DNA of 38,299 nucleotides from a virus (lineage: Duplodnaviria > Caudoviricetes): IMG/VR virus record IMGVR_UViG_3300044711_000140, positions 1 through 38,299 of that record. The stretch is one strand, 5' to 3'. The notes beneath the pieces are model-generated. The model saw only the letters and a list, made by a program, of their open reading frames with translations. It made no database searches and was not told the origin of the DNA. Numbering within the stretch: position 1 is the first letter of the stretch; each line of letters opens with the position of its first letter. Shown here piece after piece: positions 3,596 through 34,325 of the stretch. A program made the translations under genes and the position numbers.

Positions 3596-3813
3596 ACGTC
3601 GACGACTTCGACATCGCCCGCTTCAAGGCCATCTGCGCGCATCTCGGCATCGAGACCCACGTCGTCACCGACACCTTCGGCCGGCAGGACGTCCGAATCG
3701 ACCGGGACGGCCTCAACAAGCTCATCGCCGCCGGCCTGCTGCCTGAAGACCCCACGGACTTGCCCGGCTGGGCCGAGACGGTCAGACGGCACCAGGAAGG
3801 CGGCGCGGCGTGA
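3592..3813 (+). CDS. Hypothetical protein
   Basis: GTGA coupling on both sides, RBS GGGAGG. Confidence 0.7.
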   Translation: MNVDDFDIARFKAICAHLGIETHVVTDTFGRQDVRIDRDGLNKLIAAGLLPEDPTDLPGWAETVRRHQEGGAA

Positions 3814-11990: not shown

Positions 11991-12028
11991 CCCCCTCCCG
12001 CTACCGCCGCATGAAAGGAACCGCCGCA

Positions 12029-12277
12029 ATGCCCACAAATCACCCGTTCCCGCCTGGTACTCGGGTCCGGCACGGCGCCCAGATCTGGGCCTGCCTCGAC
12101 TCGTGCGGCACCGCCGAGGTCATCCGCGCCGAAGGGCCGGACCACCGGGGCGACTACGAGTACCTCGTCCGTACCGGCGATGACTTCTCGCGGCCGACCG
12201 GGCCGGACAACCCCGAGACCCGCGAGACCTGGTGGGCCAGCTACCGCACCCTGCCCGCCGACGGGAGGGCCGCGTGA
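12029..12277 (+). CDS. Small SH3-like hypothetical protein
   Basis: RBS AAAGGA; FPPGTRVRH...YEYLV. Confidence 0.65.
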   Translation: MPTNHPFPPGTRVRHGAQIWACLDSCGTAEVIRAEGPDHRGDYEYLVRTGDDFSRPTGPDNPETRETWWASYRTLPADGRAA

Positions 12278-12332
12278 TGGCCACCACCGCCACTGTCGCG
12301 CCCGCGACCACCACCCCGAAGGAGGCCTGCTG

Positions 12333-12680
12333 ATGGCCACCGCCACGACCACCGCCGTCCCGCTGTGGACCACGGCCCGTACCGCCGCTGACTGGCTCGC
12401 CCGGACGAACGGCACCTCGCCGCATCAGACGGCGATGCTGCTGATGAAGATCACCGAGGAGGCGGGGGAGGTCACCGCCGCGTACATCGGGATGACGGGC
12501 CAGAACCCGCGCAAGGGCCAGACGCACACCGCGGAGGATGTGGCCCGCGAGTTGTGCGACGTGATCCTGGCTGCCGCCACCGCGTTGCACCGGTTCACGG
12601 ACGACCCGGCCGGGTTCATGGACGCGCAGGCTGCGCGGGTTGGGGCCCGCATCGCCGCGATCGCCGGGGACGGTGCCTGA
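12333..12680 (+). CDS. MazG-like nucleotide pyrophosphohydrolase
   Basis: KITEEAGEV...QNPRKG...ELCDV acidic MazG motif; RBS AAGGAGG. Confidence 0.85.
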   Translation: MATATTTAVPLWTTARTAADWLARTNGTSPHQTAMLLMKITEEAGEVTAAYIGMTGQNPRKGQTHTAEDVARELCDVILAAATALHRFTDDPAGFMDAQAARVGARIAAIAGDGA

Positions 12681-12865
12681 TGCCGGCTCTGAACATGCGC
12701 GACGAGCGCCTGCTGGCCCGGGCCCTGGATGCGGCGGCGGAGGAGTTGGATCTGCCGTTGACGTCCCGGCAGGTGCAGGCGCTGGCCCGTGTGGCGGCCC
12801 GGCGGTTGGCCGAGCAGGCGCCGCAGACCCCGCCGGTGGTGCCGGAGTTCCGGGAGGCGCGGTGA
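12680..12865 (+). CDS. Hypothetical protein
   Basis: TGATG coupling to the MazG-like gene. Confidence 0.55.
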   Translation: MPALNMRDERLLARALDAAAEELDLPLTSRQVQALARVAARRLAEQAPQTPPVVPEFREAR

Positions 12866-13084
12866 GCACCGCCGACCAGTCCGGTCTCGAAGCGCTACAC
12901 GCCCGCACAGACGAGGCGGACAACGAATGACCGCACCTTCCGGCATCCCCGAACGGGCGCCGAGAAGCCGCGAGAAGCCGCCTCAGAGCCGCGAAACCCC
13001 CTCCGCCGGTACCGAGCGAAGCCCGGGGGTCTGTTCGGGGCTCAGAGAGCCGCACACGGCTTCGATACCCCCGCACCCGCCTGA

Positions 13085-13146
13085 CCGCCCGAACCCCACC
13101 CGGCCCAACACGCCCGGCCGGAACCCCAACCCGAAGGAACAGGACA
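13085..13146 (+). repeat. 62-bp direct repeat, copy 1
   Basis: Identical to 14072..14133; contains RBS AAGGA. Confidence 0.9.
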
Positions 13147-13700
13147 TGCCCGACCTCAGCCCCGCCTCACAGAAGCTGCTGCGGGAACTCGCCCACCGCG
13201 ACAAGGGAACCGGCGTCGCCGTCCGGTACGCCAGCCGCGGACGCTGGTACCTCGACGGCCCCAGCAGCAGCGATCTCTTCAACACCCGCACCTTCCCGGC
13301 GCTCTACGACGCCGGGCTGGCCGTCGGCTGGGATGAGCACGACGACGACGGTCCGATGCGGATCACGGAAGCCGGCCGGAAGCTGGCCGCCGAACTGGAC
13401 GCAAAGACCGCGGCGCAGGAAGCCGCCAAGAAGGCCCGCCCGAAGCCGTCAGCGGACGGTGCGACGGCGATGCGCCTGCTACGGGAGATCGCCAAGCACG
13501 AGGAGCCCGTCCTGGTCTACGACGACGGACGCCGCCGCGTGTGGCGGCTCGGCTCGCACGACGGCTACAGCGCCTCCATCGACACGTGGACCGCACTGGC
13601 GAAGGCCGACCGGATCCGCATCGAGCGTGCCGGATCCATCGGGGGTCAGCGTGTGTCCGTGACCGACGCCGGCCGGCGGTACGTGAAAGGCGCAGCGTGA
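13146..13700 (+). CDS. Hypothetical protein with two winged-helix-like repeats
   Basis: Halves KLLRELA...RITEAGRK and RLLREIA...SVTDAGRR. Confidence 0.7.
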   Translation: MPDLSPASQKLLRELAHRDKGTGVAVRYASRGRWYLDGPSSSDLFNTRTFPALYDAGLAVGWDEHDDDGPMRITEAGRKLAAELDAKTAAQEAAKKARPKPSADGATAMRLLREIAKHEEPVLVYDDGRRRVWRLGSHDGYSASIDTWTALAKADRIRIERAGSIGGQRVSVTDAGRRYVKGAA

Positions 13701-14065
13701 GGAACCGGTACGCCAGCCGCCGGGCCGAGACCGCTGTCATCCACGGCGACGGCACCCGCCACTGCGCTTGGTGCGGCGACCACATCGACCGCGACGAGAT
13801 GCGCGCCTGGTACACCGCCTGGTTCGACACCTGGCAAGCCTGGCTCGGTCGGGTCCGCGCCACCATCGACGCCGACCCGCACGCCGCCCTCAAGCGGTAC
13901 GCCGATTTCTCCATCCGCTGCTGCCAGTGCGGCAGGGCCTTGACCGATGACACCTCGAAGGTGCTCGGCATCGGCCCCGAGTGCAGGCGCGGCATCGACC
14001 CTGCGCTCCTGGCCGCGATCACCACCCCGCAGGTCGCCGCTGCCCACGCGGCCGCCTCCGCCTGA
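13697..14065 (+). CDS. DUF6011-like zinc-binding protein
   Basis: CCQCGRALTDDTSKVLGIGPEC. Confidence 0.7.
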   Translation: MRNRYASRRAETAVIHGDGTRHCAWCGDHIDRDEMRAWYTAWFDTWQAWLGRVRATIDADPHAALKRYADFSIRCCQCGRALTDDTSKVLGIGPECRRGIDPALLAAITTPQVAAAHAAASA

Positions 14066-14071
14066 TCCGCC

Positions 14072-14133
14072 CCGCCCGAACCCCACCCGGCCCAACACGC
14101 CCGGCCGGAACCCCAACCCGAAGGAACAGGACA
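14072..14133 (+). repeat. 62-bp direct repeat, copy 2
   Basis: Identical to 13085..13146. Confidence 0.9.
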
Positions 14134-14139
14134 CCACCC

Positions 14140-15903
14140 GTGATCACCAAGAAGAAGCCGCGCACCGCCGCGCACCGGCCGGCCACCCGGCACCGCCGCT
14201 TCCGCCACGACGAATACGTCGCGGTAGACCTGTTCAGCGGCTTCGGCGGCCTCACCGAAGGCATCAAGCGGGCCGGATTCACCACGATCATGGCCGCGAA
14301 CCACAACGCCTACAAGGTCGAGGTCCACGAGGCGAACCACCCGGAAACCGAACACTGGATCGCCGACCTCGTCGACCCCGAAGCGTCCGACTACCACTCC
14401 GCCCGGGACCTCCCTGCAGGCGACCTGCTCGCCGCTGGCGTGAGTTGCACCAGCCACTCACAGGCCAACACGGTCAAGGCCTACGAACAGGGCCTCGCCC
14501 TGTTCGAACTGGAGGACCCCGACTACGAAGCGCGGGTCACGAAGTCCGAGCGGGACCGGGCCACCGCAACCTGCGTCCTCCAGTACGCCGCCAAGCACCA
14601 CCCGCGCCTGATCCTCGTCGAGTGCACCACAGAGTTGCAGTCGTGGGGCAAGGCGGTTCCAGGCAAGAAGTACGGCGACGGCACCACCTACCGGTGGTGG
14701 CTCAAGCAGTTCGACCTCCTCGACTACGACCACAAGGTGTGCTTCTTCAACAGCCAGTTCTTCGGGGTTGGCCAGTCCCGTAACCGCGCCTACTGGGCGT
14801 TCTGGAAGAAGTCCCTACCCGCCCCCGACCTCGAACACCGGCCAGTGTCGCGCTGCCACCACTGCGACAAGGACGTCGAAGCGGTGTGGACCTGGAAGAC
14901 CGGCATCCCGCCGACCGGCAAGGTCTACTACGGCGAGCAGTACAACTACCGGTGCCCGTCGTGCCGCCGCGAGGTCGTCCCGCCGATGACGCCGTCGCTG
15001 GCCGCGCTCGACCTGACCGACCTCGGCACGCGCATCGGCGACAGGCCGGTCAAGACGTTCAAGGACGGATGGGTCGGGCCGCTTGCCCGGTCGACGATGA
15101 CCCGCGCGGAACTCTGCCGTCAGCGCTTCGCCGACTTCCCCGCGATCCTCATGCCGGCGAAGGGTGCACACGGCACGGAGCGGCTCCTGATGCAGCCGCT
15201 GGCCACGCAGACCAGCCAGCAGGAGACAGCGCTCCTCTCCACGGGCGCGGTGTTCGCGGCTCACCGGCACAACGGCGACGGGAAGAACATCGCTTTGCCC
15301 ATGGACACGGTGACCTCCACGCACGAGAAGGCAGTCCTGCTCGCCGTGGACAACTTCCAGGGCGCCCCGCGCGGCATCGGCTCCCCGCTGCCCACCCAGG
15401 TGGGTTCGGAGACCCTCGCCGTCGTCTCCGGGGTCATCCCGTTCCGGAAGAACACCCTTGCCGCAGGTCCGGGCGACGCCATGCCGACGGTCACGTCGGA
15501 CCAGATCCCCGGCTTGCTGTCGGTGGCCGGCTGGTTTAAGCAGAACGGAACCAGCCGCGACCACGGGACCGCACCGCACCCGCTCACCGACCCGCTCGGA
15601 ACCCTCACTGCCCACGACACGACCGCGCTGCTCATGGCCCAGTGGCGGGCTTCGCTCGCGGATCTGCCGCTGGAGGAGTGCTACTTCCGGATGATGAAGG
15701 CGCCTGAGGTCGGCCTCGGCTGCGGCTTCGACGCTGACCGCCCCGGCCGCCCCGGCACCTTCATCGTCTGGGGGTCCGCCCGCGACCAGGTGGACGGATA
15801 CGGCAACGCCGTCTCCCCGCAGGTCGGCACCTGGATCGGGGCCCGGCTGCGGGCCGTCCTCCACGGCGCCTCAGCGCCCGTGACCGCGGAGGCTGCCGCG
15901 TGA
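14140..15903 (+). CDS. C5 cytosine DNA methyltransferase (atypical motifs)
   Basis: Motif I DLFSGFGG, IV GVSCTSHS, VI LVECT, VIII QSRNR, X GNAV; CxxC...CxxC insert. Confidence 0.85.
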   Translation: MITKKKPRTAAHRPATRHRRFRHDEYVAVDLFSGFGGLTEGIKRAGFTTIMAANHNAYKVEVHEANHPETEHWIADLVDPEASDYHSARDLPAGDLLAAGVSCTSHSQANTVKAYEQGLALFELEDPDYEARVTKSERDRATATCVLQYAAKHHPRLILVECTTELQSWGKAVPGKKYGDGTTYRWWLKQFDLLDYDHKVCFFNSQFFGVGQSRNRAYWAFWKKSLPAPDLEHRPVSRCHHCDKDVEAVWTWKTGIPPTGKVYYGEQYNYRCPSCRREVVPPMTPSLAALDLTDLGTRIGDRPVKTFKDGWVGPLARSTMTRAELCRQRFADFPAILMPAKGAHGTERLLMQPLATQTSQQETALLSTGAVFAAHRHNGDGKNIALPMDTVTSTHEKAVLLAVDNFQGAPRGIGSPLPTQVGSETLAVVSGVIPFRKNTLAAGPGDAMPTVTSDQIPGLLSVAGWFKQNGTSRDHGTAPHPLTDPLGTLTAHDTTALLMAQWRASLADLPLEECYFRMMKAPEVGLGCGFDADRPGRPGTFIVWGSARDQVDGYGNAVSPQVGTWIGARLRAVLHGASAPVTAEAAA

Positions 15904-16274
15904 CCGCCGACGCCGGGCCCCGCACCCGCACCCGCACCCGCACCCGCACCCGCCTGCTGACGCGCCGCCAGAGCGAAGCTCTCACCCTCGCAGCCAACGG
16001 CAACACGAACGCGCAGATCGCCAACCGGATGGGTCGCGCCACGAACACGGTCAGCGGCACGCTCACCCGCGCCTACGTGGCCCTGGGTGCCGAGGACCGC
16101 GCCCAGGCTGTCGCCATAGCCCTCTGCCTCGGCCTGATCGACCCCAGAAGCGTGGTCCTCCCGGACCGCGTCACCCGCGCTGACGCCACCGCCCGAGCCC
16201 TACACGAGCACGGCATGGACCACGACTCCGCGACCACCGCCGATCTCGCCCCCGTCCCCGCCCCCGCGGCGTGA
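15900..16274 (+). CDS. LuxR-type HTH regulator
   Basis: LTRRQSEALTLAANGNTNAQIA...LGAEDRAQAVAIA..GLI. Confidence 0.8.
   Translation: MTADAGPRTRTRTRTRTRLLTRRQSEALTLAANGNTNAQIANRMGRATNTVSGTLTRAYVALGAEDRAQAVAIALCLGLIDPRSVVLPDRVTRADATARALHEHGMDHDSATTADLAPVPAPAA
15921..15953 (+). repeat. In-frame (CGCACC)x5.5 tandem repeat encoding RT repeats
   Basis: Read directly. Confidence 0.85.
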
Positions 16275-16315
16275 CCGGGCCCGCCACCCCAACCCCCAAC
16301 CACCAGGAGAACCCC

Positions 16316-17116
16316 GTGAGCACCGAGCCCGCGCCGAAGCGCCACATCGTGATGTGGTCCGGCGGCATCACTTCCTGGGCCACTGCCCGACACGTCATCG
16401 AACGCCACGGCACGGCCAGCACGGTCCTGCTGTTCGCCGACACCCTCATCGAGGACGAATCCCTGTACGCATTCAACGACGCGGCCAGCAGGCAACTCGG
16501 AGTACCGATCACCCGCGTCGCTGACGGCCGCACCCCCTGGCAGGTCTTCGAGGACAAGCGCTGGCTCGGCAACACCCGCATCGCCCAGTGCTCCCACGTC
16601 CTCAAGCAGCAGCAGTGCCGCACCTGGCTCAACACCAATGCCGGGCCGCCCGCGGACACCACGCTGTACGTCGGCATCGACTGGACCGAGACCGAGCGCC
16701 TGCCCGCGATCGTGCGCGGCTGGGCGCCCTGGACGGTGGATGCGCCGCTCACCCGGCCGCCGTATCGCGACAAGGGCCAGCTGCTCGCGGAGGCCCGCGC
16801 GGCCGGACTGCCCATACCGCGCCTGTACGACCTCGGGTTCGCCCACAACAACTGCGGCGGCGCCTGCGTCAAGGGCGGGCAGGCGCAGTGGCTGCGGCTG
16901 CTGCGGGTCTTCCCCGAGCGGTACGCCCGTGCTGAGGCCGCTGAGGAGCGGATGCGGGAGCGGCTCGGGAAGGACGTGTCGATCCTGCGGGACAGGGTCG
17001 GCGGGGCCACCAAGCCGTTGACGCTGGCCGCGCTGCGGGCCCGCGCGGAGTCCGAGCCCGACCAGCTTGACCTGTTCGACGAAGGCGGCTGCGGCTGCTT
17101 CACCGACGCCGCGTGA
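16316..17116 (+). CDS. PP-loop / PAPS-reductase-like adenine nucleotide alpha hydrolase
   Basis: VMWSGGITS, FADT, CSHVLK, VGID..E, HNNCGGACVKGG, C-terminal GCGCF; RBS AGGAG. Confidence 0.75.
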   Translation: MSTEPAPKRHIVMWSGGITSWATARHVIERHGTASTVLLFADTLIEDESLYAFNDAASRQLGVPITRVADGRTPWQVFEDKRWLGNTRIAQCSHVLKQQQCRTWLNTNAGPPADTTLYVGIDWTETERLPAIVRGWAPWTVDAPLTRPPYRDKGQLLAEARAAGLPIPRLYDLGFAHNNCGGACVKGGQAQWLRLLRVFPERYARAEAAEERMRERLGKDVSILRDRVGGATKPLTLAALRARAESEPDQLDLFDEGGCGCFTDAA

Positions 17117-17195
17117 CCCGCCTGGTGGACCGCGCCGGCGCCTATCCGGCGCGGTCCGCCCGGCAGCCTCCCACAACCCCAACCTGGAGACCCCG

Positions 17196-17498
17196 ATGAG
17201 CGAGCCCACCACACGACTCCACCAAGCCGCCGAGACTGACCCCCGCATCAACGACCTGCGATGGACCACGTACCGCGGCCTCGACCACCTGTGGCTCGGC
17301 CAGTCCACCGCGTGCGGACGCAACCTCCACAACCTCGCCCCTGCGGACGCCCGCCCGTACTGCCCGATCTGCCTGGCCTACGCCCGCGGCTGGCTCGACC
17401 GGCACGACCACGGGCCCGCCCCGGAGCTGGGAAAGCCCGACCCGCGGCGCTACCCCCTCGCGGTGGCCGACGCGCTCCTCGGCCCCGAAACGCCGTAG
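17196..17498 (+). CDS. Hypothetical zinc-binding protein
   Basis: RBS GGAG; H...TACG...YCPIC. Confidence 0.6.
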   Translation: MSEPTTRLHQAAETDPRINDLRWTTYRGLDHLWLGQSTACGRNLHNLAPADARPYCPICLAYARGWLDRHDHGPAPELGKPDPRRYPLAVADALLGPETP

Positions 17499-17612
17499 AC
17501 GCCTGCCACAGCCCCGCACACGCCCCCGAGCGACGCCAGGCCCCGCCCACGCCCCCACAAGCCGCCACACGCCCCGCACAGCCCCGAGAAGACACCAAGG
17601 AGACCCGACACC

Positions 17613-17831
17613 GTGACCACCGAACGCTTCAGCCCGACCGACAACAGCCCCGAGGCCAGCGCCGCCCGCAACGTCCCCCAGAACCCGCACCCCCTCTGCC
17701 GCGACTTCGTGGAACAGCCCGAGCCCGCCGAGTTCTGGTGCGCCACCTGCCACTGGAACCGCCCCATGCACGACGACGAGGCCGCCCGGACCGCCATCGC
17801 CAACGAACTGGCCCGGCTGACCACCGCCTGA
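17613..17831 (+). CDS. Hypothetical protein
   Basis: RBS AAGGAG; C..CATC..H. Confidence 0.65.
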   Translation: MTTERFSPTDNSPEASAARNVPQNPHPLCRDFVEQPEPAEFWCATCHWNRPMHDDEAARTAIANELARLTTA

Positions 17832-17897
17832 CCCGTTGGCCGCCCCGTCACCCCCGGGGCGGCCACCCCCAACCCCCGACCAGCAAGGAGCAGCACC

Positions 17898-18170
17898 GTG
17901 CCGATCCGCCCGCACACCTGCATCACCGTGGCCTGCGACGTCTGCGGCTACGTCTACCACCAGGACGAATACACCACCCACTTCGCCAACATCGACGAAG
18001 CCCGCACCCACATCCACCGCGAAGGCTGGCTCATCACAGCCGACCGGCGCGTCTACTGCGCATCCGAAGACGACGCTCACCAGGCAGCGCACGACGCGCT
18101 CATGCCGCCCGAGCCGACAACCGTCCCGGACGGGCAGCTCACCACCCCCGTCGCTGAGGGTGCCGCATGA
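17898..18170 (+). CDS. Hypothetical zinc-binding protein (paralog of 35460..35729)
   Basis: RBS AAGGAG; CDVCG...GW...YC..H. Confidence 0.7.
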   Translation: MPIRPHTCITVACDVCGYVYHQDEYTTHFANIDEARTHIHREGWLITADRRVYCASEDDAHQAAHDALMPPEPTTVPDGQLTTPVAEGAA

Positions 18171-18493
18171 CCACCCCGCCCCCGGACCGTCCCGTGTGCG
18201 CCGGCTGCCCCGGCTGCGGCGGACCCGACTGCGCCCAGAAGCCCGAGGCCGCACACGAGCCCATGGCGGTCACGCCCCCCTGGGCTCTCTCGCCCATCCA
18301 CGAACTCCGCGCCGCTGGGTGGCGCATCCAGGGCTGGGCCGACGCCGACCCCGACGACCAGTTCGGCCCACTGCTCTCCGCATGGATCTACCGCGTCGCC
18401 CAGGACTGGGGCCCGCCCGAGTCCAGCGGACCCTACGACGCCCCGGAAGCCCTGGCTCTCGCGCGCCTGATCAACGCTGCGGAGTCACGATGA
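18167..18493 (+). CDS. Hypothetical protein
   Basis: ATGA coupling on both sides. Confidence 0.6.
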   Translation: MTTPPPDRPVCAGCPGCGGPDCAQKPEAAHEPMAVTPPWALSPIHELRAAGWRIQGWADADPDDQFGPLLSAWIYRVAQDWGPPESSGPYDAPEALALARLINAAESR

Positions 18494-18960
18494 CCACCAC
18501 CACACCCCAGCCCGGGCCGGCGGCGACCGACCCGGCACTCCAGCAGCGCATCCGCACCGCCGTCCACGCAGCCCACCGCGAATGGATGCGACCCGGCAGC
18601 GACGCCGGGCAACACCTCCTCGCCGACGCGCTCACCAACGCCGTCCTGGCCGCCCTCGCACCCGAACTCGCCCGCCTCCGCAAAGCCGAGCAGGCCGTCA
18701 ACCTCCTCGCCGGATCCCACCGCCGCGCCGAGGAGGCCGAAGCCGCGCTCACCCGCGTGCGGGAGCTCCACCAGCCCGTCACCTGGCCCGCCGAACCGCC
18801 CCAAGGCGCTGGGCCCGACGCCGAGCACTTCGACGGCCCCGTCACTGTGTGCGCCGCTGACTCTGACGACCCCCGCGGGCGCACCTACTGGACGCCGTGG
18901 CCCTGCGCGACGATCCGCGCCCTCAACACGCCCCACCCCACAGGCGACAGCACCCCCTGA
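18490..18960 (+). CDS. Hypothetical phage protein
   Basis: ATGA coupling; RVRELH...WPCATIRAL motif common in actinophages. Confidence 0.65.
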   Translation: MTTTTPQPGPAATDPALQQRIRTAVHAAHREWMRPGSDAGQHLLADALTNAVLAALAPELARLRKAEQAVNLLAGSHRRAEEAEAALTRVRELHQPVTWPAEPPQGAGPDAEHFDGPVTVCAADSDDPRGRTYWTPWPCATIRALNTPHPTGDSTP

Positions 18961-18995
18961 ACCAACCCGTGGACACCGCCCAGGTGCCCACACCC

Positions 18996-19069
18996 GCCCG
19001 GGTCGCTCAACGGCAGAAGCAGCCGCCTTAAAAGCGGATCAAGTGCGAGTTCGAATCTCGCTCCGGGCT
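18996..19069 (+). tRNA. tRNA-like gene, anticodon TAA (Leu, reads UUA), short variable region
   Basis: Acceptor GCCCGGG/TCCGGGC, D-arm GCTC-AACGGCA-GAAGC, anticodon arm GCCGC-CTTAAAA-GCGGA, T-arm GCGAG-TTCGAAT-CTCGC; no encoded CCA. Confidence 0.8.
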
Positions 19070-19102
19070 CTGCACCACCCGACACCCACCACAGAGGACA
19101 CC

Positions 19103-19306
19103 GTGACCACGCCAGCCGACGAGATAAACGCCGCCGCCGACAAGTGGCGCCGCACCCACCCCGACGACGAACTCGCCCACGCCCTCGCCGACCTCCTCGA
19201 CGCAGAAGCCCGCCACTGGGCAGCCGTCTACGTCGGCCAGCCCATGTCTGACCACGCGCACCACGCGCTGACCGTCGCCCGCCACATCAACCAGGAGCAG
19301 CAGTGA
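19103..19306 (+). CDS. Hypothetical protein
   Basis: RBS AGAGGA; ALADLLD...HALTVAR. Confidence 0.7.
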   Translation: MTTPADEINAAADKWRRTHPDDELAHALADLLDAEARHWAAVYVGQPMSDHAHHALTVARHINQEQQ

Positions 19307-19686
19307 CCGCCGAACCGCTCTGTCCGTTCTGCGAGATCGTCGCCGGAAGAGCACCCGCTGAGTGGATCCTGCAGCCGGATTACTGGCCCGACGCCGTCGC
19401 GTTCATCCCGCTCAACCCCGTCACCGAGGGCCACTGCCTCATCGTCCCCAAGATCCACGTCCGGGACTTCGCCCACGACCCCGAGGTGTTCGCCGCGACC
19501 GCCCGGCGCGCCGCCGAACTGATGCGGTGGACACCCCGGCCCATGAACGTCATCACGTCCCGGGGCCGTGAGGCGACGCAGTCGGTTTGGCATCTCCATC
19601 TGCACCTCGTGCCCCGCGCCGAGAACGACGGGCTCGCCCTGCCCTGGTACTCCGGCCGCACCCGCAAGACACCCCACCCCGCCTGA
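19303..19686 (+). CDS. HIT-family nucleotide hydrolase
   Basis: CPFCEIV, GHCLIVPK.H, QSVWHLHLHLVPR histidine triad. Confidence 0.92.
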   Translation: MTAEPLCPFCEIVAGRAPAEWILQPDYWPDAVAFIPLNPVTEGHCLIVPKIHVRDFAHDPEVFAATARRAAELMRWTPRPMNVITSRGREATQSVWHLHLHLVPRAENDGLALPWYSGRTRKTPHPA

Positions 19687-19740
19687 CCACGCCCGACGGC
19701 CGCCCGCACACCCAGGCGGCCCCAACCCGGAAGGACACCT

Positions 19741-19959
19741 GTGACCCGATACGCCTGCCGGAACTGCCGCCGCCCCATCCACTGGCTACCCGACGTCGGC
19801 TGGCTCCACGGCGAACTACCCCAATACGCAGGCGAGCCCATCACCTGCACCAACGCCCACCCCGTCTGCGAGTACAGCACCTGCGACCACCCCGACGGGC
19901 CTGACCCCGAATGCCCCTGCCGCTGCCACAAACCCGCCGCCGAGAGGACAAGGACATGA
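19741..19959 (+). CDS. Cys/His-rich hypothetical protein
   Basis: RBS AAGGA; CRNC...CPCRCH. Confidence 0.6.
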   Translation: MTRYACRNCRRPIHWLPDVGWLHGELPQYAGEPITCTNAHPVCEYSTCDHPDGPDPECPCRCHKPAAERTRT

Positions 19960-20557
19960 CCCCCGGGCCGATCACCGCGTGTCTCCGCCACGCCGACTAC
20001 CACGTCATGGACCCCGACTGCTGGGGCGTCGTCCTCGACTTCTACGACCGCAACCAGGACCTCCCCGAGCAGCAGCGCCGCGACGCCTACCAGGCCGCCG
20101 TCGAACTCCGCATCCTCGGCCAACTCCGCACCCCCGCCAGCCCGGTGGCGCCCGAGGGGAGCGGACAGCGACCGACCCGCTCACCATCATCACCGCCGTC
20201 CTGGAGGACTACGCCGGGATGCACCCCGCCACCCAAGCCCGCCACGTCGTGGAGGCGCTGCAGGGCCTGTACGTGCCGCCCCCACCCGGCTCCGACCGCG
20301 ACGCCCTCCCCGAGCACCTGCGGGAGCTGATCGCCCCGCACATGCCGCCGTACACGTCCACGTATTGCCAGACCGCCGACGCGCTCGAGGCCGCCGCCGA
20401 GCGGCGCCCGGAGGTGGCAGCCGAGCTCCGGCAGTGGGCCGAGAGGCAGCGGGCGTCCTGCCGGCTGACCAGGAAGCAGGACATGGCGCCGTGTGATCAC
20501 CCGTGGCACGGCACCAGCCGTCCGGAGGGACCCGCCGTCAGCTACCACGGCGCGTAG
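19956..20557 (+). pseudogene. Two coupled hypothetical genes (19956..20171 and 20168..20557) whose GTGA junction reads GCGA
   Basis: Coding frame switches at ~20168; RBS GAGGGGAG precedes it; a C-to-T change at 20169 restores both stop and start. Confidence 0.55.
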
Positions 20558-20707
20558 TCGCCCGCGCGCACGACAGCGCCGTTACCGAACCGCGACCACC
20601 GCCTGCTCTACAAATCGACTCCTCGACCCCAGAACAAGAGCAGAGACGCCCGTTAGAAGTCGCCCCCCGCCTGCCTAACGGCCGCGCCACCCACAACCCC
20701 ATAAACC

Positions 20708-20737
20708 GAGGCCCCCGCCAGAACCGACGGGGGCCTC
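20708..20737. terminator. Stem-loop
   Basis: gaggcccccg-N10-cgggggcctc. Confidence 0.55.
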
Positions 20738-20762
20738 ACGCTGCCCACCCCAGGGAGACTAG

Positions 20763-20858
20763 ATGAACCAGCTCACGAACGTGCTCGCCCTCGCCACCGC
20801 GATAGCCCAGTTCGCGGCCGTGCTCGCCCGCTACGTGCGCCGCGGCAGCAAGCGGTAG
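20763..20858 (+). CDS. 31-aa hydrophobic peptide with basic tail (MNQLTNVLALATAIAQFAAVLARYVRRGSKR)
   Basis: Translated by hand; RBS GGGAG; below the ORF-track cutoff. Confidence 0.5.
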   Translation: MNQLTNVLALATAIAQFAAVLARYVRRGSKR

Positions 20859-20869
20859 ACACTGGGCCC

Positions 20870-21091
20870 ATGACCCCCGCCCCGTCCCCGCTGCCCGGCT
20901 TAGCCACAGGCTCCGAGCTGGCAGCGGGGATTCCCGTTGTCGAGTGCCGGGACTGCCACAGACCGCTGATTGGCCGCGAAGCGCGCATGTGGGGGCGAGG
21001 CCGCCGCTGCCGCGGGAAGCACGGCCTCTACGGCGGCGCGCCGGCCGTGGGCCGGTTCGAGGTGGAGCAGGAGACGCTGCCGGGGGCGTGA
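20870..21091 (+). CDS. DUF6011-like small zinc-binding protein with a TTA codon
   Basis: CRDCHRPL...G.G..C; TTA at 20900-20902. Confidence 0.6.
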   Translation: MTPAPSPLPGLATGSELAAGIPVVECRDCHRPLIGREARMWGRGRRCRGKHGLYGGAPAVGRFEVEQETLPGA

Positions 21092-21098
21092 GGGGCGC

Positions 21099-21758
21099 CT
21101 ATTCCTTCACGAGTTCCGGATGGTCCCTTATGAACGCGGCGACCACGTCCGGGCTACGGCGCATCGCCGCCCGCAACTGGTTGACACGAAACTTCTCCCG
21201 CTCCCGGTCCAAGACCGCCTTGTAGCCGTCCTTGCCCGAGGTCAGGCCCTCACGGATCAGGAACTCGATCACATCTTCGAGACTCGGCCGGAACCGTTTC
21301 CCGCCGACCGGGAAGTGCAGTTTCACCATCGGCCGGCCCGGTAGTAATCCGGCCAGCACCTCGTCCTGCCCGGCGACCTGCAAGTGCGCGTCCGGGTAAT
21401 TGTCGCGCTTGTCCCGCTCGTAGTCGTAGTGGAACAGGGCGTCCTTGCCGGTCTCGGTGGGGAACACCCCGACGAACGAGCTGCGCACCGTCAGATACTG
21501 ATCCCACTGGTCCATCTGGACGCGGAAGCTCACGTCGAGCCACAGCTTCGGTGCTTTCGCCCCGATCCGCAGCGGCAGCCGCGGGGGCAGCACGTTGGTC
21601 CTCGACACTTGGTGGCCAACGACGAAGACACGCTCCGGGCCGGAGGCCGGTAACACCGCAGCACGGATCATGGCGTGCGCGCAGACAGTCTGGTTCAGGA
21701 CGGTCTGGATGTCCTCAGCGAAGCCGGTGGCTTTGCTGCGAAGAGCGTCACTGATCAA
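21099..21758 (-). CDS. Hypothetical protein, putative toxin/defence effector
   Basis: Globular sequence with FHYDYE...PDAHLQV...LHFP motif; TTA codon; overlaps the small upstream gene. Confidence 0.7.
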   Translation of the reverse strand: MISDALRSKATGFAEDIQTVLNQTVCAHAMIRAAVLPASGPERVFVVGHQVSRTNVLPPRLPLRIGAKAPKLWLDVSFRVQMDQWDQYLTVRSSFVGVFPTETGKDALFHYDYERDKRDNYPDAHLQVAGQDEVLAGLLPGRPMVKLHFPVGGKRFRPSLEDVIEFLIREGLTSGKDGYKAVLDREREKFRVNQLRAAMRRSPDVVAAFIRDHPELVKE

Positions 21759-21957
21759 GTGGGCCGCCGATCACCGACCACACGGCCTGGGCCTGCGAGG
21801 AGTCGAAGTCGTGGCGCGCGGCCTGCTCGGCGAGCTGCTCATAGGTGAAACCGATCTGCGCCAAGGCCCGATTCTTCGCGGCCTCGTACTCCTCGGGCGT
21901 CAGCTCCACGACAATGTCGTCGTCGCTGGTCCGCGGCTCGTTGACGGTCACGGTCAT
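21748..21957 (-). CDS. Small acidic protein, putative antitoxin partner
   Basis: 69 aa, acidic, overlaps the downstream gene. Confidence 0.65.
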   Translation of the reverse strand: MTVTVNEPRTSDDDIVVELTPEEYEAAKNRALAQIGFTYEQLAEQAARHDFDSSQAQAVWSVIGGPLDQ

Positions 21958-22211
21958 CGCCTACCCCCTAGACGGTATTCAGTGACCCGAGTGTGTCTCA
22001 TGGGTCTGACACTGTGCCCTACCGGCCCACGGGAGGCGACCCGCGGGACCGCTTCTGCCGGATAGTTACCCCTTACGGGTGATCGGTAGCCGCTCGCTGC
22101 CGCTTGCGTACCCCAAGTGACGTACCGCCGGTCACGATCCCGTCACGCCCCAGACGGCCGGGCGACGCCCCTGCCACGATCGCCCCCGACACAACACCCA
22201 GGGGGGATCTC

Positions 22212-22739
22212 ATGCACGCCCGCACGCCCATCACCACCAGCCTGCTCACCGCCACACTCCTACTCACCGGCTGCGGAGGGGGCCACGCCAAGTCCAGCGG
22301 GCGCCCGACGACATCCGCGGCCATCACGGCGACCCCAGCGGCGAAAGCGACCAGCACTTACCTCGGCCCGAAGGTGAAGCCGTCCACCAAATGGGTGCCC
22401 AAGCTCCGGGCCCTCAGCGACGGAAACGGCGTGTCCGACTGCCAGACCTCCGGCAGTCCCGCGTGCCTGCGCGCTATGACCGCCGCGATCACCACCTACA
22501 CCGGCATCCTGAAAGACATCACCGCGGCGGGCGCCGGCACCGAGTACAAGAAAACCGTCGCCGACATCAACCAGTACGTGCGGGCCGCAGACGCCTACCA
22601 GGCTGCCGGGTGCGCCAACGATCCGAACGCGGACATCGAGGGCTCACCGTGCTACGGCGACGCCCTGAAGGTGGCTACAGGCCCGAGCATCCTGCAGTTC
22701 GTCCTGCCCACCGACGAGCTTGGCGTCGGCGTGAGCTGA
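22212..22739 (+). CDS. Lipoprotein
   Basis: Signal peptide with lipobox LLLTG-C, S/T-rich linker, paired Cys. Confidence 0.75.
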   Translation: MHARTPITTSLLTATLLLTGCGGGHAKSSGRPTTSAAITATPAAKATSTYLGPKVKPSTKWVPKLRALSDGNGVSDCQTSGSPACLRAMTAAITTYTGILKDITAAGAGTEYKKTVADINQYVRAADAYQAAGCANDPNADIEGSPCYGDALKVATGPSILQFVLPTDELGVGVS

Positions 22740-24640: not shown

Positions 24641-25153
24641 ATGGAACAGGACTGGCGACGGCTCGGAGAGGCAATCAAGCGCGACCGCATGCGACTCGGT
24701 ATGACGCAGGATGACCTGGCAAGAGCGGCTGAGATCTCCCGCCGAAGCATCGCCTCCTTGGAAAACGGACGCGAAGCGAGCCGTACCCCTCCTTCCCTCG
24801 CCAAGGTTGCGCACGTCCTCGGCTGGCCCCCGGAGCGGGCCGCTGCGATTCTCCAGGGACAGGAAGAGCTGGAAGGCCCGCGCGAGTCAGTCCGCGGACA
24901 CGGGCTCGTGGCCCTCTATCCTTCAGATCGCAGGCTCATGGATCGGCTTCCGCTGCGCGTGGCCGAGGAATTGGACTCAGGGTCCGTGATCGACACAGAC
25001 GTCATCGAACTTGCCGAGGGCGGCATGCGCGTGGTCGTCGTCCTCAAGAGCGATGACGATGTGAACCGTGAACAGATTCGCGAAGCCATGTCCACCTGGG
25101 GCGACGTTCAACGTGCCCTTCGTGCTGTTATCGGGACTCCAACCCGGTCGTGA
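24641..25153 (+). CDS. XRE-family HTH transcriptional regulator
   Basis: RLGEAIKRDRMRLGMTQDDLARAAEISRRSIASLENG. Confidence 0.88.
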   Translation: MEQDWRRLGEAIKRDRMRLGMTQDDLARAAEISRRSIASLENGREASRTPPSLAKVAHVLGWPPERAAAILQGQEELEGPRESVRGHGLVALYPSDRRLMDRLPLRVAEELDSGSVIDTDVIELAEGGMRVVVVLKSDDDVNREQIREAMSTWGDVQRALRAVIGTPTRS

Positions 25154-25541
25154 GTGCCCCGTCCAGGTACGCCTGTACGGGCTCGAACAGTCCATAGGGC
25201 ACGTGGGCTGGGATCTCGTGGTGCTTGATCCAAGCGATTTCGGCGATCTCTTCGTCATCGAGGACAGCCGGCTCGCCTTCCAGGGCTGTGCAGGCTGTGT
25301 AGACCATGGCTCGGCCGGTCTTCGGGTGGACACGCTCCCCGAGCACCCGGTCAGCCTCGACCGTCAGCCCGACCTCTTCGGCTACTTCCCGCACTGCGGC
25401 CTGCTCCGCCGTCTCGCCCTCCTCCACTGCGCCGCCGGGGAACGCCCACAGCAGTTCGCCTTCCTTCTGCCGGCGGCGGATCATCAGGACGGCCCCGTCT
25501 CGGGTGATGATCGCCATGGAGATGACGGGCTGGTCGGTCAT
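25128..25541 (-). CDS. NUDIX hydrolase
   Basis: Canonical box GGAVEEGETAEQAAVREVAEEVG. Confidence 0.92.
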   Translation of the reverse strand: MTDQPVISMAIITRDGAVLMIRRRQKEGELLWAFPGGAVEEGETAEQAAVREVAEEVGLTVEADRVLGERVHPKTGRAMVYTACTALEGEPAVLDDEEIAEIAWIKHHEIPAHVPYGLFEPVQAYLDGALTTGLESR

Positions 25542-26176
25542 GCTGCCTCCTGTAGAGCAGTGAGCACCGGCGGGTAGATCCGCTCGGGCGGGATGAAACG
25601 GCCGAGCGCCGCAAGGGGCGCCCAGGCGACGTCCAGGTTCTCGATCGGATCGGCGTTAGTGGCGTCGCCAGCGAGGTAGTCGCAGAGCACGTAGTCGGCG
25701 AGGACGCCGGTCACGGGGTGGAGGCGGGAGCCGAGGCGTTCCCGGACGGCTACCCGGACGCCGGTCTCACCCAGCGTCTCGGCCACTGCCACGGCCTCGG
25801 CGCTTCGTCCGGGCTTGACGACGCCAGCGGGAAACTGCCAGGTGATCGCGTCGTCCCCACGGCGGCACACCAGCAGCACCTCCGTGCCGCGCACTACTAC
25901 GGCGATTGCCACCCGCAGCGCCTGGACTGTCGGCGCGGCCACGGTCGGCCGGGACAGGAGCGCGAATCGCTGCCGCACCTGCTCACCTGCCCTCTCGTAT
26001 GCCGTGTCCAACGCGGCCTGGATCTCTGCGCGCGGCACCACATCGGGCTGCGCGTGCCAGCCGGCCACCGTGCGGACCGCGACTCCGAGCCTGTCGGCGA
26101 ACCCCTCGTTCGTCAGGCGCAGGGCCTCCTGGAGAGCGCAGGCTGAGCTGCCGGTCCAGGTGCTGACGACGTCCAT
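25538..26176 (-). CDS. HTH-NUDIX fusion (degenerate NUDIX box)
   Basis: N-terminal LRLTNEGFADRLGVAVRTVAGW HTH; C-terminal WQFPAGVVKPGRSAEAVAVAETLGETG. Confidence 0.85.
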   Translation of the reverse strand: MDVVSTWTGSSACALQEALRLTNEGFADRLGVAVRTVAGWHAQPDVVPRAEIQAALDTAYERAGEQVRQRFALLSRPTVAAPTVQALRVAIAVVVRGTEVLLVCRRGDDAITWQFPAGVVKPGRSAEAVAVAETLGETGVRVAVRERLGSRLHPVTGVLADYVLCDYLAGDATNADPIENLDVAWAPLAALGRFIPPERIYPPVLTALQEAA

Positions 26177-30869: not shown

Positions 30870-32240
30870 GTGAACGGCACCCGTATGAACGGCACCGCGA
30901 ACGGCACGCCGCTGCCCAGCGTGCCGCTGCTCGGCGCCGTCACCCCCATCAGCTTCATGCCGACTGCGCCGGTCGCCCCGGAGCCCGACCCCGTCCCCGC
31001 CACTGCGCCCGTCCCCGCCGAGCCCGCCGCGAGCGAACTGGTGGCCGCCGCTGAGGCCAACCGCATCCGACTCCTCGCCGAAGCCGAGGCCGAGGCGCTG
31101 CGGATCGAGGCTGAGGGCAAGGCCGAAGCCGAGAAGGTCAAGGCGACCGAGGAGGCCCGCAAGCAGAAGATCGCCAACGACAAGGCCGAGGGAAAGGCCC
31201 GCGAGGAAGAGGCCGCCCGCGAGGCGCGCATTGCCGAGTCCCGCCGTCTGCAGGCCGAGGCCGACCGCACCCGCGAAGAGGCCGCCTGGGCAGACGCCGA
31301 GGAGCGGAAGGCGAAGGCGCAGCAGCAGGCCAAGGTCGCCAAGTCGGCCAAGTCCTGGCGCCGGTACGCCCTCGGCTTCGCAATCGTGTGCGCCATCGTT
31401 GCCCTGCCCGTCCAGATGTCCGCGTTCTACAGCAAGTCGGCCCCGTGGCTTTTGGCCGCGCCGCTCGTTCTTGAAGGTGGGGCGTGGGTCGTCCTCAAGG
31501 GCGCTGCTGCCGCGGTCGACGAGCACCGCCCGCACTGGCACTACCGGCTCATCGCCTGGACCCTCGCCGCGCTCGCCGCCGGCGTCAACCTGTCGCACGG
31601 TCTCAGCCACTTCGGGCGTGCCACCGCCATCGGCACCGCCTTCGCGTCGCTCGCCGGCCCGGGCGTGTGGGACTTGCACGAGCATGGCCGTATCCGTGGC
31701 CGCGACGGCAAGCTCACCCGGCGGGAGCGCGATGCGCGCAAGGCCGCTGAGAAGAAGGCTGCGGCCGAGAGGGCCGCCGAGCGGCAGCGGATCGAGAAGG
31801 AGAAGGCGGAGGCGGCCGACGCCGCGAAGCAGGCCGCCGAGGAGCTCGCCAACACTCGTGCCGAGCGCTTCGAAGACGAGTGGGACCACGCCCTGGAACT
31901 GGCCGCCGCGCTCGGCGAAACGACGGTCACCGAGGCCGTGTGGAAGCGCGCCTGGCACGACGTGCACGGCACCGAACCGGGCGACACCGTCGACATCATC
32001 CGGGGCCGCAACAACGCCGCCCGACGCCTCGCTGCGGCCGTCTCCGAAGCCCCCGGAAACACGCCCAGCAAGGTCACAAGTGCGCAGCGTGCAAACCAAA
32101 TGCCCCGCGCCCAGCGAGGCCCCGCGCGCAAGCCTCCGCCGCGTCGCCGCGGGGACACCACGCCCTACGTTCAGGCGGCCCGCACACAAGCCGCAATCAC
32201 CGCCCGCACCGCCGCCCGACGCACCGCCCGAGAGGACTGA
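30870..32240 (+). CDS. Coiled-coil plus 4-TM membrane protein (Spd/DUF2637-like)
   Basis: EAEA/K coiled coils flank four hydrophobic segments; immediately upstream of the FtsK-like gene. Confidence 0.7.
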   Translation: MNGTRMNGTANGTPLPSVPLLGAVTPISFMPTAPVAPEPDPVPATAPVPAEPAASELVAAAEANRIRLLAEAEAEALRIEAEGKAEAEKVKATEEARKQKIANDKAEGKAREEEAAREARIAESRRLQAEADRTREEAAWADAEERKAKAQQQAKVAKSAKSWRRYALGFAIVCAIVALPVQMSAFYSKSAPWLLAAPLVLEGGAWVVLKGAAAAVDEHRPHWHYRLIAWTLAALAAGVNLSHGLSHFGRATAIGTAFASLAGPGVWDLHEHGRIRGRDGKLTRRERDARKAAEKKAAAERAAERQRIEKEKAEAADAAKQAAEELANTRAERFEDEWDHALELAAALGETTVTEAVWKRAWHDVHGTEPGDTVDIIRGRNNAARRLAAAVSEAPGNTPSKVTSAQRANQMPRAQRGPARKPPPRRRGDTTPYVQAARTQAAITARTAARRTARED

Positions 32241-32243
32241 GCC

Positions 32244-34325
32244 GTGGCCATCGACAACCTCCCCGCCCGCCCCACGCAGCCGCCCGCCACACCCCCCGTG
32301 GCGGCCCCGGTGCCGGAGTGGCTGACGCCCGGCAAGGAGATCACCAAGCCGGCCGGACAGCCCCGCGGTACGAGCGTCGTCCGGACCACCGGGCGCGCCA
32401 TCGGCACCAGCGCCGGATGGCTCCGCAGCGGTCTCAAGCTCGCCGGCCGCAAGTGGATCGAGGCGTACCACGACGACTACCCCCACATGATCAACGTGGC
32501 GAGCGCCGAGATCAAAGCGGCTGAGGACACCCGTGCTGTCGCCGACGCGAAGGCATACCGGCGCGATTGGCGAAGGGAACTCCGGCGCCACCGCTTCCTG
32601 CACCTCGGCAAGACCGGCGCCAGCACCGTCCTCGCCGGCGGCAGCCTCGCCACCGGCGGCGTCCTCCTGGGCGGCTGGATCGACATCCTCATGGCAGTCG
32701 CCGGGTTCGGCGCCACCGCCTACTACGGGCACCGCACCGACGGCCCGGCCGCGCTCGCCGCCGGCGAGCAGCCGGCCGCCATCGGCCCCGGAGCCCACGA
32801 GGACGACGGCGAACCCTTCCCGCTCGCCCAGTGCGCCACCGGCGCCGAAGTCCGCATCTGCGTCCACCGGGCCCTCAAAGCCGAAGGCATCCCCGTCGCC
32901 GAGGTGTACGACGTCACCCGCAAGGACTGGGGCTGGCAGTGCATCGTCCGCGTCTCCGAAGGCACCCCCGAGACCATCATCAAGTCTGCGGGCGGCCTGG
33001 AGACCCGCCTTGACCTGCCCACCAACGGCGTCCGCGTCCAGCCCATGGTCGAGCGGCGGGCTTGCGCGATCCTGCGCCTCGTCAGCGGCGACCCGTTCGC
33101 CACCGCCCCCGGCCTGCCCTACCGGGCCCCCAAGTCCATGTCCATCATGGACCGATTCCGCGTCGGCACGTCCATCGGCGGTGACCCGCTGGAACTGTCC
33201 CTGGCCGGCGTCATGGGCCTGTGGGTCGCCGCGTCCGGCGGCGGCAAGACCGGCATCCTGCAGGCCCTCGCCGAGGGCACGACCGCCTGCTACGACAACA
33301 TCACCATCGACCTCGACCCGTTCGGTGACGGACTCGAAGACCTCGGCGACTGTGTACGGATCACCGCCCGCACCAACGAGGAGATCGAAGCCGTCCTGTT
33401 GTTCTTCCTGGTCATGGCCAAGGCGCGGGCCCGGCTGCGGGCGAAGCTCGGCATGGGCCGCAAATGGAAGGCCAGCCCCGAGCACCCCGCCGTCACGATC
33501 TTCTTCGACGAACTGCCGAAAGCCAGCGCACTGGCGAAGCGCCTGTACAACGACCTTCTCCTCGTCGGACGCAAGGAGTTGATCGTCGTGGAGGCCGCGT
33601 CCCAGGGCGGTCAAAGCGGCTACCTCGGAGCCAACATCGCACAGATGGTCGCCCTCACTGCGGTCGGTCCTTGCAAGGTCGAGGACACCCGCTCCGTGTT
33701 CGGCGACGGCTCGGTGAAGGAGGGGTACCTGCCGCACCGGCTGTCCCCGGCCACCGCCACCGACTCCAAGGACGCCGGTCACCTCTACATCCAGGGAGTG
33801 CCGGGCGTACCCGACGAGCCGATTGAGTACGCCATCCACGAGGCACCATCCGCGGTGCTTCGGCAGCTCGCGCAGGAGCGACTGGAGGCGGGCCTGCTCG
33901 ACCCCGACCAGGACAGCCTGACCGCCATGCGGGGCGTGGACCTGCCCGAATACGTCGAGGCCGAGTACGACGTGGAGGGCAAACTGAAGAAGGAGGCCCC
34001 CGTGGAACTCCTCACCTGGGAGCAGTTGCTGCGGCTGTGCGACGCCGAGCCGCCGGCCGGCGCGACGCCGAGCCCGTCTATGACTGTGGTCGCCGACGTG
34101 GTGGCTGTGATGGACAAGTTCGGCGTGGACCGGATGCGGACCGAGACCCTCGCCGCTGCAGTTGCCGATCACGACCCGGCCGCCTACGGCGAGTTGACCC
34201 CGGAGTCACTGAAGGACTTGCTCGCTGAGGTCGTTGGTAAGCCCGTGCAGCTCGGCGCGTGGGACGGCATGGCGAACCCGCGCGGCTTCAAGCGGGACGA
34301 TCTCGCCGCCCGCCTGCGGCCCTAA
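32244..34325 (+). CDS. traB: TraB-like FtsK/SpoIIIE DNA translocase
   Basis: N-terminal TM hairpin, LETRLDLP/GDPF segment, Walker A AASGGGKT, IDLDP, Walker B IFFDE, GRK..SQ, C-terminal wHTH-like domain (NPRGF). Confidence 0.75.
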   Translation: MAIDNLPARPTQPPATPPVAAPVPEWLTPGKEITKPAGQPRGTSVVRTTGRAIGTSAGWLRSGLKLAGRKWIEAYHDDYPHMINVASAEIKAAEDTRAVADAKAYRRDWRRELRRHRFLHLGKTGASTVLAGGSLATGGVLLGGWIDILMAVAGFGATAYYGHRTDGPAALAAGEQPAAIGPGAHEDDGEPFPLAQCATGAEVRICVHRALKAEGIPVAEVYDVTRKDWGWQCIVRVSEGTPETIIKSAGGLETRLDLPTNGVRVQPMVERRACAILRLVSGDPFATAPGLPYRAPKSMSIMDRFRVGTSIGGDPLELSLAGVMGLWVAASGGGKTGILQALAEGTTACYDNITIDLDPFGDGLEDLGDCVRITARTNEEIEAVLLFFLVMAKARARLRAKLGMGRKWKASPEHPAVTIFFDELPKASALAKRLYNDLLLVGRKELIVVEAASQGGQSGYLGANIAQMVALTAVGPCKVEDTRSVFGDGSVKEGYLPHRLSPATATDSKDAGHLYIQGVPGVPDEPIEYAIHEAPSAVLRQLAQERLEAGLLDPDQDSLTAMRGVDLPEYVEAEYDVEGKLKKEAPVELLTWEQLLRLCDAEPPAGATPSPSMTVVADVVAVMDKFGVDRMRTETLAAAVADHDPAAYGELTPESLKDLLAEVVGKPVQLGAWDGMANPRGFKRDDLAARLRP

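Follow-up and report, generated by a model that had tools for sequence, protein, structure and literature searches.

In Streptomyces, the developmentally controlled bldA tRNA is taught as the only reader of UUA codons. The single tRNA gene in the window (the whole stretch of DNA analyzed here, which at 38.3 kb and 70% GC is the entire virus record) has a UAA anticodon on a body with a short variable loop, raising the question of whether a phage supplies its own UUA decoder, which amino acid such a tRNA would carry, and what purpose it would serve. The reading favored here, with a probability of about 0.6, is that the gene encodes a second, phage-borne UUA decoder that is likely leucylated by the host LeuRS, giving a supply independent of the bldA tRNA. 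A mobile second decoder would be an exception to bldA as the only UUA reader.

Gene call and anatomy of the tRNA

ARAGORN, a check named in the original prediction, calls the gene as tRNA-Leu(taa) at 18996-19070, and the segment ending one nucleotide earlier belongs to the Rfam tRNA family (RF00005; 46.5 bits versus a gathering threshold of 29, E 5.4e-7). Both results uphold the full cloverleaf with anticodon TAA that had been described from the letters alone. The other features then noticed, namely a variable region of ~6 nt, a U discriminator, a G-A mismatch atop the anticodon stem (G27·A43), and the lack of an encoded CCA (U73 is followed by CTG, placing a C directly after the discriminator), are likewise found at the assigned positions (Table 1). 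All stem pairs are intact save 27:43 and 13:22, and both exceptions are norms of the family to which the tRNA belongs. The D-stem has three pairs plus C13·A22, as in type I tRNA-Leu, and the core is of the Leu type (U8:A14, A15:U48, A20a, and an unpaired 13·22). The variable region of 6 nt agrees with the loop of at least 5 nt that characterizes type I tRNA-Leu and differs from the long arm of the bldA kind (about 17 nt). Thermodynamic folding alone is not significant for this tRNA (MFE -28.4, z -1.63, 13 of 200 shuffles equally good), and its Rfam score lies under those of all 66 tRNA matches in one Streptomyces genome (49.6-79.7 bits). This is a genuine tRNA gene, in which all of the listed features are present and none marks it as aberrant.

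Table 1. Positions of the tRNA gene, its parts, and nearby genes in the window.
Feature	Position	Strand	Basis
Upstream ORF, 156 aa, part of co-oriented early/replication run; ends 35 nt 5' of the tRNA	18490..18960	+	own gene caller
Type I (short variable loop) tRNA gene, UAA anticodon	18996..19069	+	ARAGORN, Rfam
G27·A43 mismatch	19022/19038	+	position assignment
Anticodon UAA, as in bldA	19029-19031	+	position assignment
Variable region, 6 nt	19039-19044	+	position assignment
Discriminator U (U73)	19069	+	position assignment
Downstream ORF, 67 aa, starts 33 nt 3' of the tRNA; no family match	19103..19306	+	own gene caller
HIT-family protein gene	19303..19686	+	Pfam PF01230
DUF6011 ORF, TTA at codon 11; low gene score, start uncertain	20870..21091	+	Pfam, own gene caller
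Conserved 219-aa gene, in-frame TTA codons 36 and 138	21099..21758	-	own gene caller, homologues
69-aa ORF overlapping the start of the 219-aa gene	21748..21957	-	own gene caller; pair kept in 5/5 related viral loci

Gene neighborhood and likely host

The tRNA gene lies in a co-oriented run of genes for exonuclease VIII, an antirepressor, DpdA, a replication initiator, DnaC/DnaB, a DNA methylase, and HIT proteins, with an FtsK gene and a terminal HNH gene further right in the window. A longer frame sharing the stop of the upstream ORF gives a weak match to phrog_23623. No integrase, att site, or structural genes were found in the window, which is a fragment, and relatives with the same early module are integrated prophages possessing integrase, terminase, portal, and tail genes. 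Since these relatives are prophages and the best named homologues of a neighboring protein come from Actinacidiphila and Streptomyces, we infer that the source of the window is a temperate phage of Streptomycetaceae. Within 12000-22500, no sigma-70-like promoter sites were found (a consensus that is uninformative for Streptomyces promoters), nor any plus-strand terminator. Among 50,697 annotated phages, blastn detected no close relative; the one record to span 80% of the query matched it at 77.5%. No RNA data set was listed among the sequencing runs containing it, a result that carries no weight in either direction.

Several other genes in the window merit mention. The genes for DpdA (7-deazaguanine DNA modification), a DNA methyltransferase, and a PAPS-reductase-like protein (3810-4760, 14140-15903, and 16316-17116, all plus strand) suggest layered DNA modification in this phage. 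An FtsK/SpoIIIE-like gene and its 456-aa partner (30870-34325, plus strand), also present in related prophages, resemble TraB-type transfer genes. Two adjacent Nudix genes occupy 25128-26176 on the minus strand, and one of them matches PADLOC PDC-S07.

Distribution and conservation of the tRNA family

An anticodon-arm pattern of 19-20 nt with the anticodon fixed retrieved 6 viral loci and 39 genome loci, 27 of the latter being tRNA-Leu(taa), with 16 in 15 streptomycete genomes and 11 in other actinobacteria. Among the 16 streptomycete loci, 11 adjoin phage replication or recombination genes, 2 adjoin integrase or XRE genes, and the other 3 have no such assignment. The subfamily sharing the acceptor stem of the window tRNA comprises 44 distinct short-arm sequences, mostly from streptomycete prophages, once an aberrant tandem copy (L020) is set aside. 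Its occurrence is patchy (6 of 400 sampled Streptomyces genomes, or about 1.5%; 3 of 79 related loci). All 15 named streptomycete hosts also have a long-arm, bldA-like UAA match, by patterns spanning the anticodon loop to the T-loop only. The phage gene is not a sole, chromosomal UUA decoder in the manner of bldA; it sits among phage genes, and the hosts of its relatives have a separate long-arm match. Outside the streptomycetes, Brachybacterium, Nocardioides, and a Mycobacterium MAG have the same anticodon arm on a chromosomal short-arm tRNA among housekeeping genes, and in five such genomes this is the only obvious UAA tRNA match. Short arms are also common among viral Leu(UAA) tRNAs generally (64 of 120 pattern matches in 6 of the 64 parts of the viral collection, all 64 having A73). 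In the open-licence PMC and bioRxiv literature, as far as its text is accessible, no paper was found on short-arm UAA tRNAs in Streptomyces prophages, or describing the short-arm tRNA-Leu(UAA) of actinobacteria and phages as a class; an extra Streptomyces tRNA of another isotype is reported in PMC9262613.

The variable loop across the 44 members spans 5-8 nt and is never shorter than 5, and at 15:48 there are 40 A:U and 4 G:C pairs without a mismatch. The 3:70 pair is C3-G70 in the window tRNA and in 43 of the 44 members, with U3·G70 in one. Among the first 33 sequences, 12:23 is always paired (G-C in 24, U-A in 8, C-G in 1), compensatory changes are seen in two T-stem pairs, and 27:43 is most often G27·A43 (15/33). 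Because the first patterns had a fixed anticodon, the search was repeated with the acceptor and D-arm only. This anticodon-free search found intact tRNAs in 10 of 12 viral matches (the remaining 2 are 5' halves only) and in all 8 genome matches; all 18 have UAA, including 10 whose anticodon arms are unlike the first pattern. The family sequences are related, so that these counts do not represent independent events. The compensatory and tertiary covariation together with the invariant anticodon point to purifying selection. The premises for decay, one of the fates originally considered for the gene, do not hold here, given that G27·A43 is a family norm and that a missing CCA is the rule among host genes (14 of 62 host tRNA genes encode CCA and 48 do not, and bldA also lacks it).

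Variation within and around the family takes several forms. Four relatives have an arm of 11-17 nt on the same body, indicating that arm length varies within one lineage, and a relative (L030) has U73 followed by an encoded CCA. The bldA-like C38 is found in 7 of the 44 members, and a C38 sub-lineage lies 0.3-1.1 kb downstream of intact host bldA and also at provirus ends (L550:1097-1577, L552:277-1576, L548; L537, L542, L543), where it may mark elements integrating at bldA. It sits before a conserved gene that we take to be oxidoreductase-like, from its N-terminal motif. Two elements contain two copies of the tRNA (L020:3975-4157, in which the first copy has a broken acceptor stem, and G012:C93:306499 and 316808). 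The G3·U70 pair, absent from the window tRNA, was seen only in a separate UAA tRNA family (L334, L403, L404, L407), which is near tRNA-Ile(UAU) in three of its four loci. Finally, tRNA-Leu(CAA) is long-armed in three Streptomyces genomes (L057, L058, L231) and short-armed in another (L079).

Amino acid identity

The original prediction entertained the insertion of a residue other than leucine at UUA, on the premises that typical tRNA-Leu has a long variable arm and that A73 is a main LeuRS identity element. Neither premise holds in Streptomyces: S. coelicolor LeuRS (ScoLeuRS) charges a short-arm tRNA-Leu with a 5-nt loop, 5 being the smallest number of variable nucleotides with which it works, and makes no use of A73, with A73 mutants of bldA complementing fully in vivo (Fan et al. 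2019, PMC6614811). The relative kcat/Km values given in the accessible text of that paper are 141% for A73U, 83% for A73G, and 35% for A73C, and a bldA chimera with a 5-nt loop kept 14% efficiency (PMC6614811). According to the same text, C74 of the CCA end is essential for ScoLeuRS, and the LeuRS of S. purpurogeneiscleroticus is unable to charge type I tRNA-Leu (PMC6614811). The tRNA chemistry, in terms of the short arm and the free N73, is already explained in print.

The discriminators of the 44 family members (37 A, 4 G, 3 U, and no C) fit the tolerance of ScoLeuRS, for which A73C is the least efficient variant and A73U and A73G are tolerated; non-A73 discriminators are not significantly more frequent than in the chromosomal type I set (6/33 versus 0/21, p 0.07). 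In all 16 streptomycete hosts, the LeuRS match is split by insertions, with frames of 961-1156 aa that appear consistent with the long Sco type. Across the carrier phages, the residues aligned to TTA codons in homologues are Leu in 28 of 36 cases, as compared with 585 of 893 at other Leu codons, and this alignment makes a recoding of UUA unlikely. By analogy with the characterized ScoLeuRS substrates, the tRNA is very probably a leucine tRNA.

Two other origins for the gene were considered and rejected. Derivation from tRNA-Phe by a G34U change is suggested by the inner anticodon arm, which is like that of host tRNA-Phe, but the D-arm and 15:48 are of the Leu type, and the long-arm relatives (L002, L041, L315), all Leu-type, also speak against it. 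The gene is not an attP fragment, being whole and unlike any host tRNA except a family member.

TTA codon use in phages with and without the tRNA

The use of TTA was compared with an in-house codon-based gene caller in which TTA was scored neutral. The carriers were 20 records (19 plus the window), and as controls 18 near-complete isolate proviruses were chosen out of the 79 related loci; some records were covered in part, and G436 was represented by G004:C70:1-80000. Carriers contain 29 TTA in 300,887 codons, with at least one in 16 of 20 records, versus 7 in 297,036 codons and 7 of 18 records for non-carriers (MWU p~0.001). With the score threshold set at five different levels, the rate ratio comes to about 2-4, rising at the strictest cut, where the counts are tiny, and p values for the association range from 3e-6 to 0.7 depending on threshold and subset. 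Tests of internal TTA are significant throughout for the viral records, while tests of any TTA and those with the eight named-genome prophages mostly are not. Isolate-only carriers have 0.82 versus 0.24 TTA per 10,000 codons at one threshold (p 0.003), with p 0.02-0.09 at others. When only the 20-kb early-module loci are compared (8 duplicate or tRNA-less loci dropped), TTA use does not differ between 22 carriers and 73 non-carriers (MWU p 0.5-0.95). The carriers are scattered on a one-protein marker tree (28 rows, 9 changes versus a shuffled mean of 8.4), and the genomes are mosaic. Overall, the TTA signal in carriers is small, weak, and threshold-dependent. The tRNA plausibly permits or serves TTA use; however, the average is about one TTA per phage, and the four carriers that have none, including 80 kb covering an S. 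yunnanensis prophage, indicate that the phage's own TTA demand is not the whole story.

The genes containing TTA in carriers are varied: two phages have it in head and packaging genes, and the other genes concerned code for regulators of the XRE and GntR types or are accessory. In-frame TTA occurs in terminase, portal, head protease, and capsid genes in L350:3118-13697 (G437) and L397:11183-16172 (the G003 prophage), and these two phages are the best candidates for TTA licensing; the L350 tRNA is of another acceptor type than that of the window. In the window itself, the main TTA gene is the conserved 219-aa gene, a candidate client of the tRNA, in which TTA codons 36 and 138 correspond to Leu in 79 and 106, respectively, of 119 homologues. 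Because it is on the opposite strand, it may be expressed apart from the tRNA. The 219-aa protein has many invariant His, Asp, and Arg residues but no Pfam, PHROG, or PADLOC family and no PDB sequence match, and a confident structure model (pLDDT 87) gave no clear fold match (best Z 5.8), with an Atlas search yielding weak leads only. Together with the overlapping 69-aa ORF it looks like a toxin-antitoxin or defense module (21099-21957, minus strand). TTA inside the pair is also seen in two of five related loci.

Proposed function and alternative explanations

As a second UUA decoder, the tRNA would be co-transcribed with the early genes on induction or infection, and would be trimmed and receive its CCA from host enzymes. 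Its A37 would be modified by MiaA, with the loop carrying A36-A37-A38, the MiaA motif given in the available text of PMC5372745; the bldA copies examined mostly have C38, as opposed to A38 in the window tRNA. Leucylation would follow, to judge from Sco tRNA-Leu(CAA) and the A73U mutant of that tRNA. The tRNA would then read UUA in vegetative cells, where the bldA tRNA is reported to be limiting (PMC10732093). The purpose would probably be the translation of the few TTA genes of the phage without the stalling of ribosomes at UUA.

A more far-reaching proposal is that the tRNA overrides the bldA switch, with early expression both licensing TTA-gated phage genes (terminase, portal, protease, and capsid genes in some relatives, regulators in others) and switching on host TTA genes in vegetative hyphae. 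This is doubtful, but if true, the override would be the counter-defense predicted were bldA evolved as an anti-phage checkpoint. Hesketh et al. are said to have put forward the underlying suggestion in 2007. According to that suggestion, the UUA codons of phages might have provided the selection for the bldA checkpoint, an idea that a mobile second decoder would open to testing (PMC2000904). In practice, the gene could also be a compact means of expressing antibiotic regulators that contain TTA, independently of bldA.

Four further explanations were weighed against the leucylated second decoder. The tRNA could be a nearly neutral passenger, with the window copy starting to decay, as might be suspected from its patchy occurrence, from early modules that show no TTA excess, and from an Rfam score that is the lowest against the 66 host tRNAs. 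The intact stems (27:43 and 13:22 following the family norm), the signs of purifying selection, and the recurrence of U73 with an encoded CCA in L030 make this improbable. Alternatively, it could be a nuclease-resistant replacement or, as raised in the original prediction, a decoy; should the bldA tRNA be destroyed by an anticodon nuclease or toxin of the host, it would take over UUA decoding or be cut instead. Resistance to VapC-type nucleases has been suggested for phage tRNAs with altered anticodon loops (PMC10264068), the window tRNA differs from bldA in its anticodon stem and at N38, and the tRNA is kept in phages without TTA of their own. However, there is little reason to destroy a tRNA without which the host can grow (PMC2000904), UUA is scarcely used by these phages, 7 of the 44 relatives share C38 with bldA, and no UUA-tRNA nuclease was found for Streptomyces in the accessible open-licence PMC and bioRxiv literature, leaving a rather slim chance for this explanation.

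A mistranslating tRNA, charged with Gly, Cys, Phe, or Ala and recoding UUA, is very unlikely. The bacterial identity sets in Table 1 of PMC9976931 do include U73, G1-C72, and C2-G71 for Gly, and U73 with C3-G70 for Cys, and the inner anticodon arm recalls host tRNA-Phe. As those sets are given there, however, the window tRNA lacks G3-C70, C35, and C36 for Gly, G2-C71, G34, and C35 for Cys, G34 and A73 for Phe, and G3·U70 for Ala, its U34-A35-A36 departing from C35-C36 (Gly), G34-C35-A36 (Cys), and G34-A35-A36 with A73 (Phe) (PMC9976931). It also keeps U8:A14, A15:U48, and A20a of the Leu type, while 37 of 44 relatives have A73 and the TTA positions are Leu in homologues. Just as little credence is given to compensation for a bldA gene disrupted by phage integration, although such tRNA-dependent lysogeny is known in actinophages (PMC10865867) and members of the C38 sub-lineage are located at distances of 0.3-1.1 kb from bldA or at the ends of proviruses. 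The window tRNA is situated well inside the early genes, the window (a fragment) yielded no integrase, disruption of the same-isotype host tRNA by integration was not seen in the hosts of relatives, a long-arm UAA match is present in 15 of 15 named hosts, and whole bldA genes are called in the four loci with data (L067, L221, L550, L552).

Comparison with known systems

The closest characterized counterpart is the type I tRNA-Leu(CAA) of S. coelicolor, with which the window tRNA shares a loop of at least 5 nt, U8:A14, R15:Y48, a three-pair D-stem with C13·A22, and a host enzyme that has no need of A73, as far as described in the accessible text of PMC6614811. The window tRNA differs in having UAA rather than CAA and in being phage-borne, with its charging proposed by analogy; 40 of 64 compared positions match the Streptomyces type I CAA gene (L079). 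With bldA, a type II tRNA-Leu(UAA), it shares the anticodon and a near-identical acceptor stem (differing at 7:66 and N73), whereas it lacks the long arm, has another D-arm and anticodon stem, and has A38 in place of C38. It is identical to bldA at 39-42 of 64 positions and is situated on a mobile element, additional to the host gene. The short-arm tRNA-Leu(UAA) of Brachybacterium and Nocardioides have the type I body, UAA, an identical anticodon arm, and 46-51 of 64 positions in common with it. However, the other short-arm tRNA-Leu(UAA) serve as housekeeping genes or belong to phage tRNA clusters, the 64 viral ones retaining A73, whereas the window tRNA occurs singly, in a genus whose UUA decoding forms a regulated bottleneck.

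Amongst phages, the Synechococcus WH5701 / Syn9 system involves the same isotype, with a shortage of Leu-TAA limiting phage translation, and so blocking a cyanophage as a form of resistance, and the phage having acquired tRNAs, but it is cyanobacterial and involves many TTA codons, whereas the window phage is almost without TTA (Zborowsky 2025, PMC11726456, as far as its accessible text goes). The Streptomyces phage phiHau3, with its UUA-gated terminase, also meets the host UUA bottleneck, but the strategy proposed for it in the available text is to profit from the missing tRNA through bypassing, whereas the window phage would bring its own decoder (Antonov 2023, PMC10732093).
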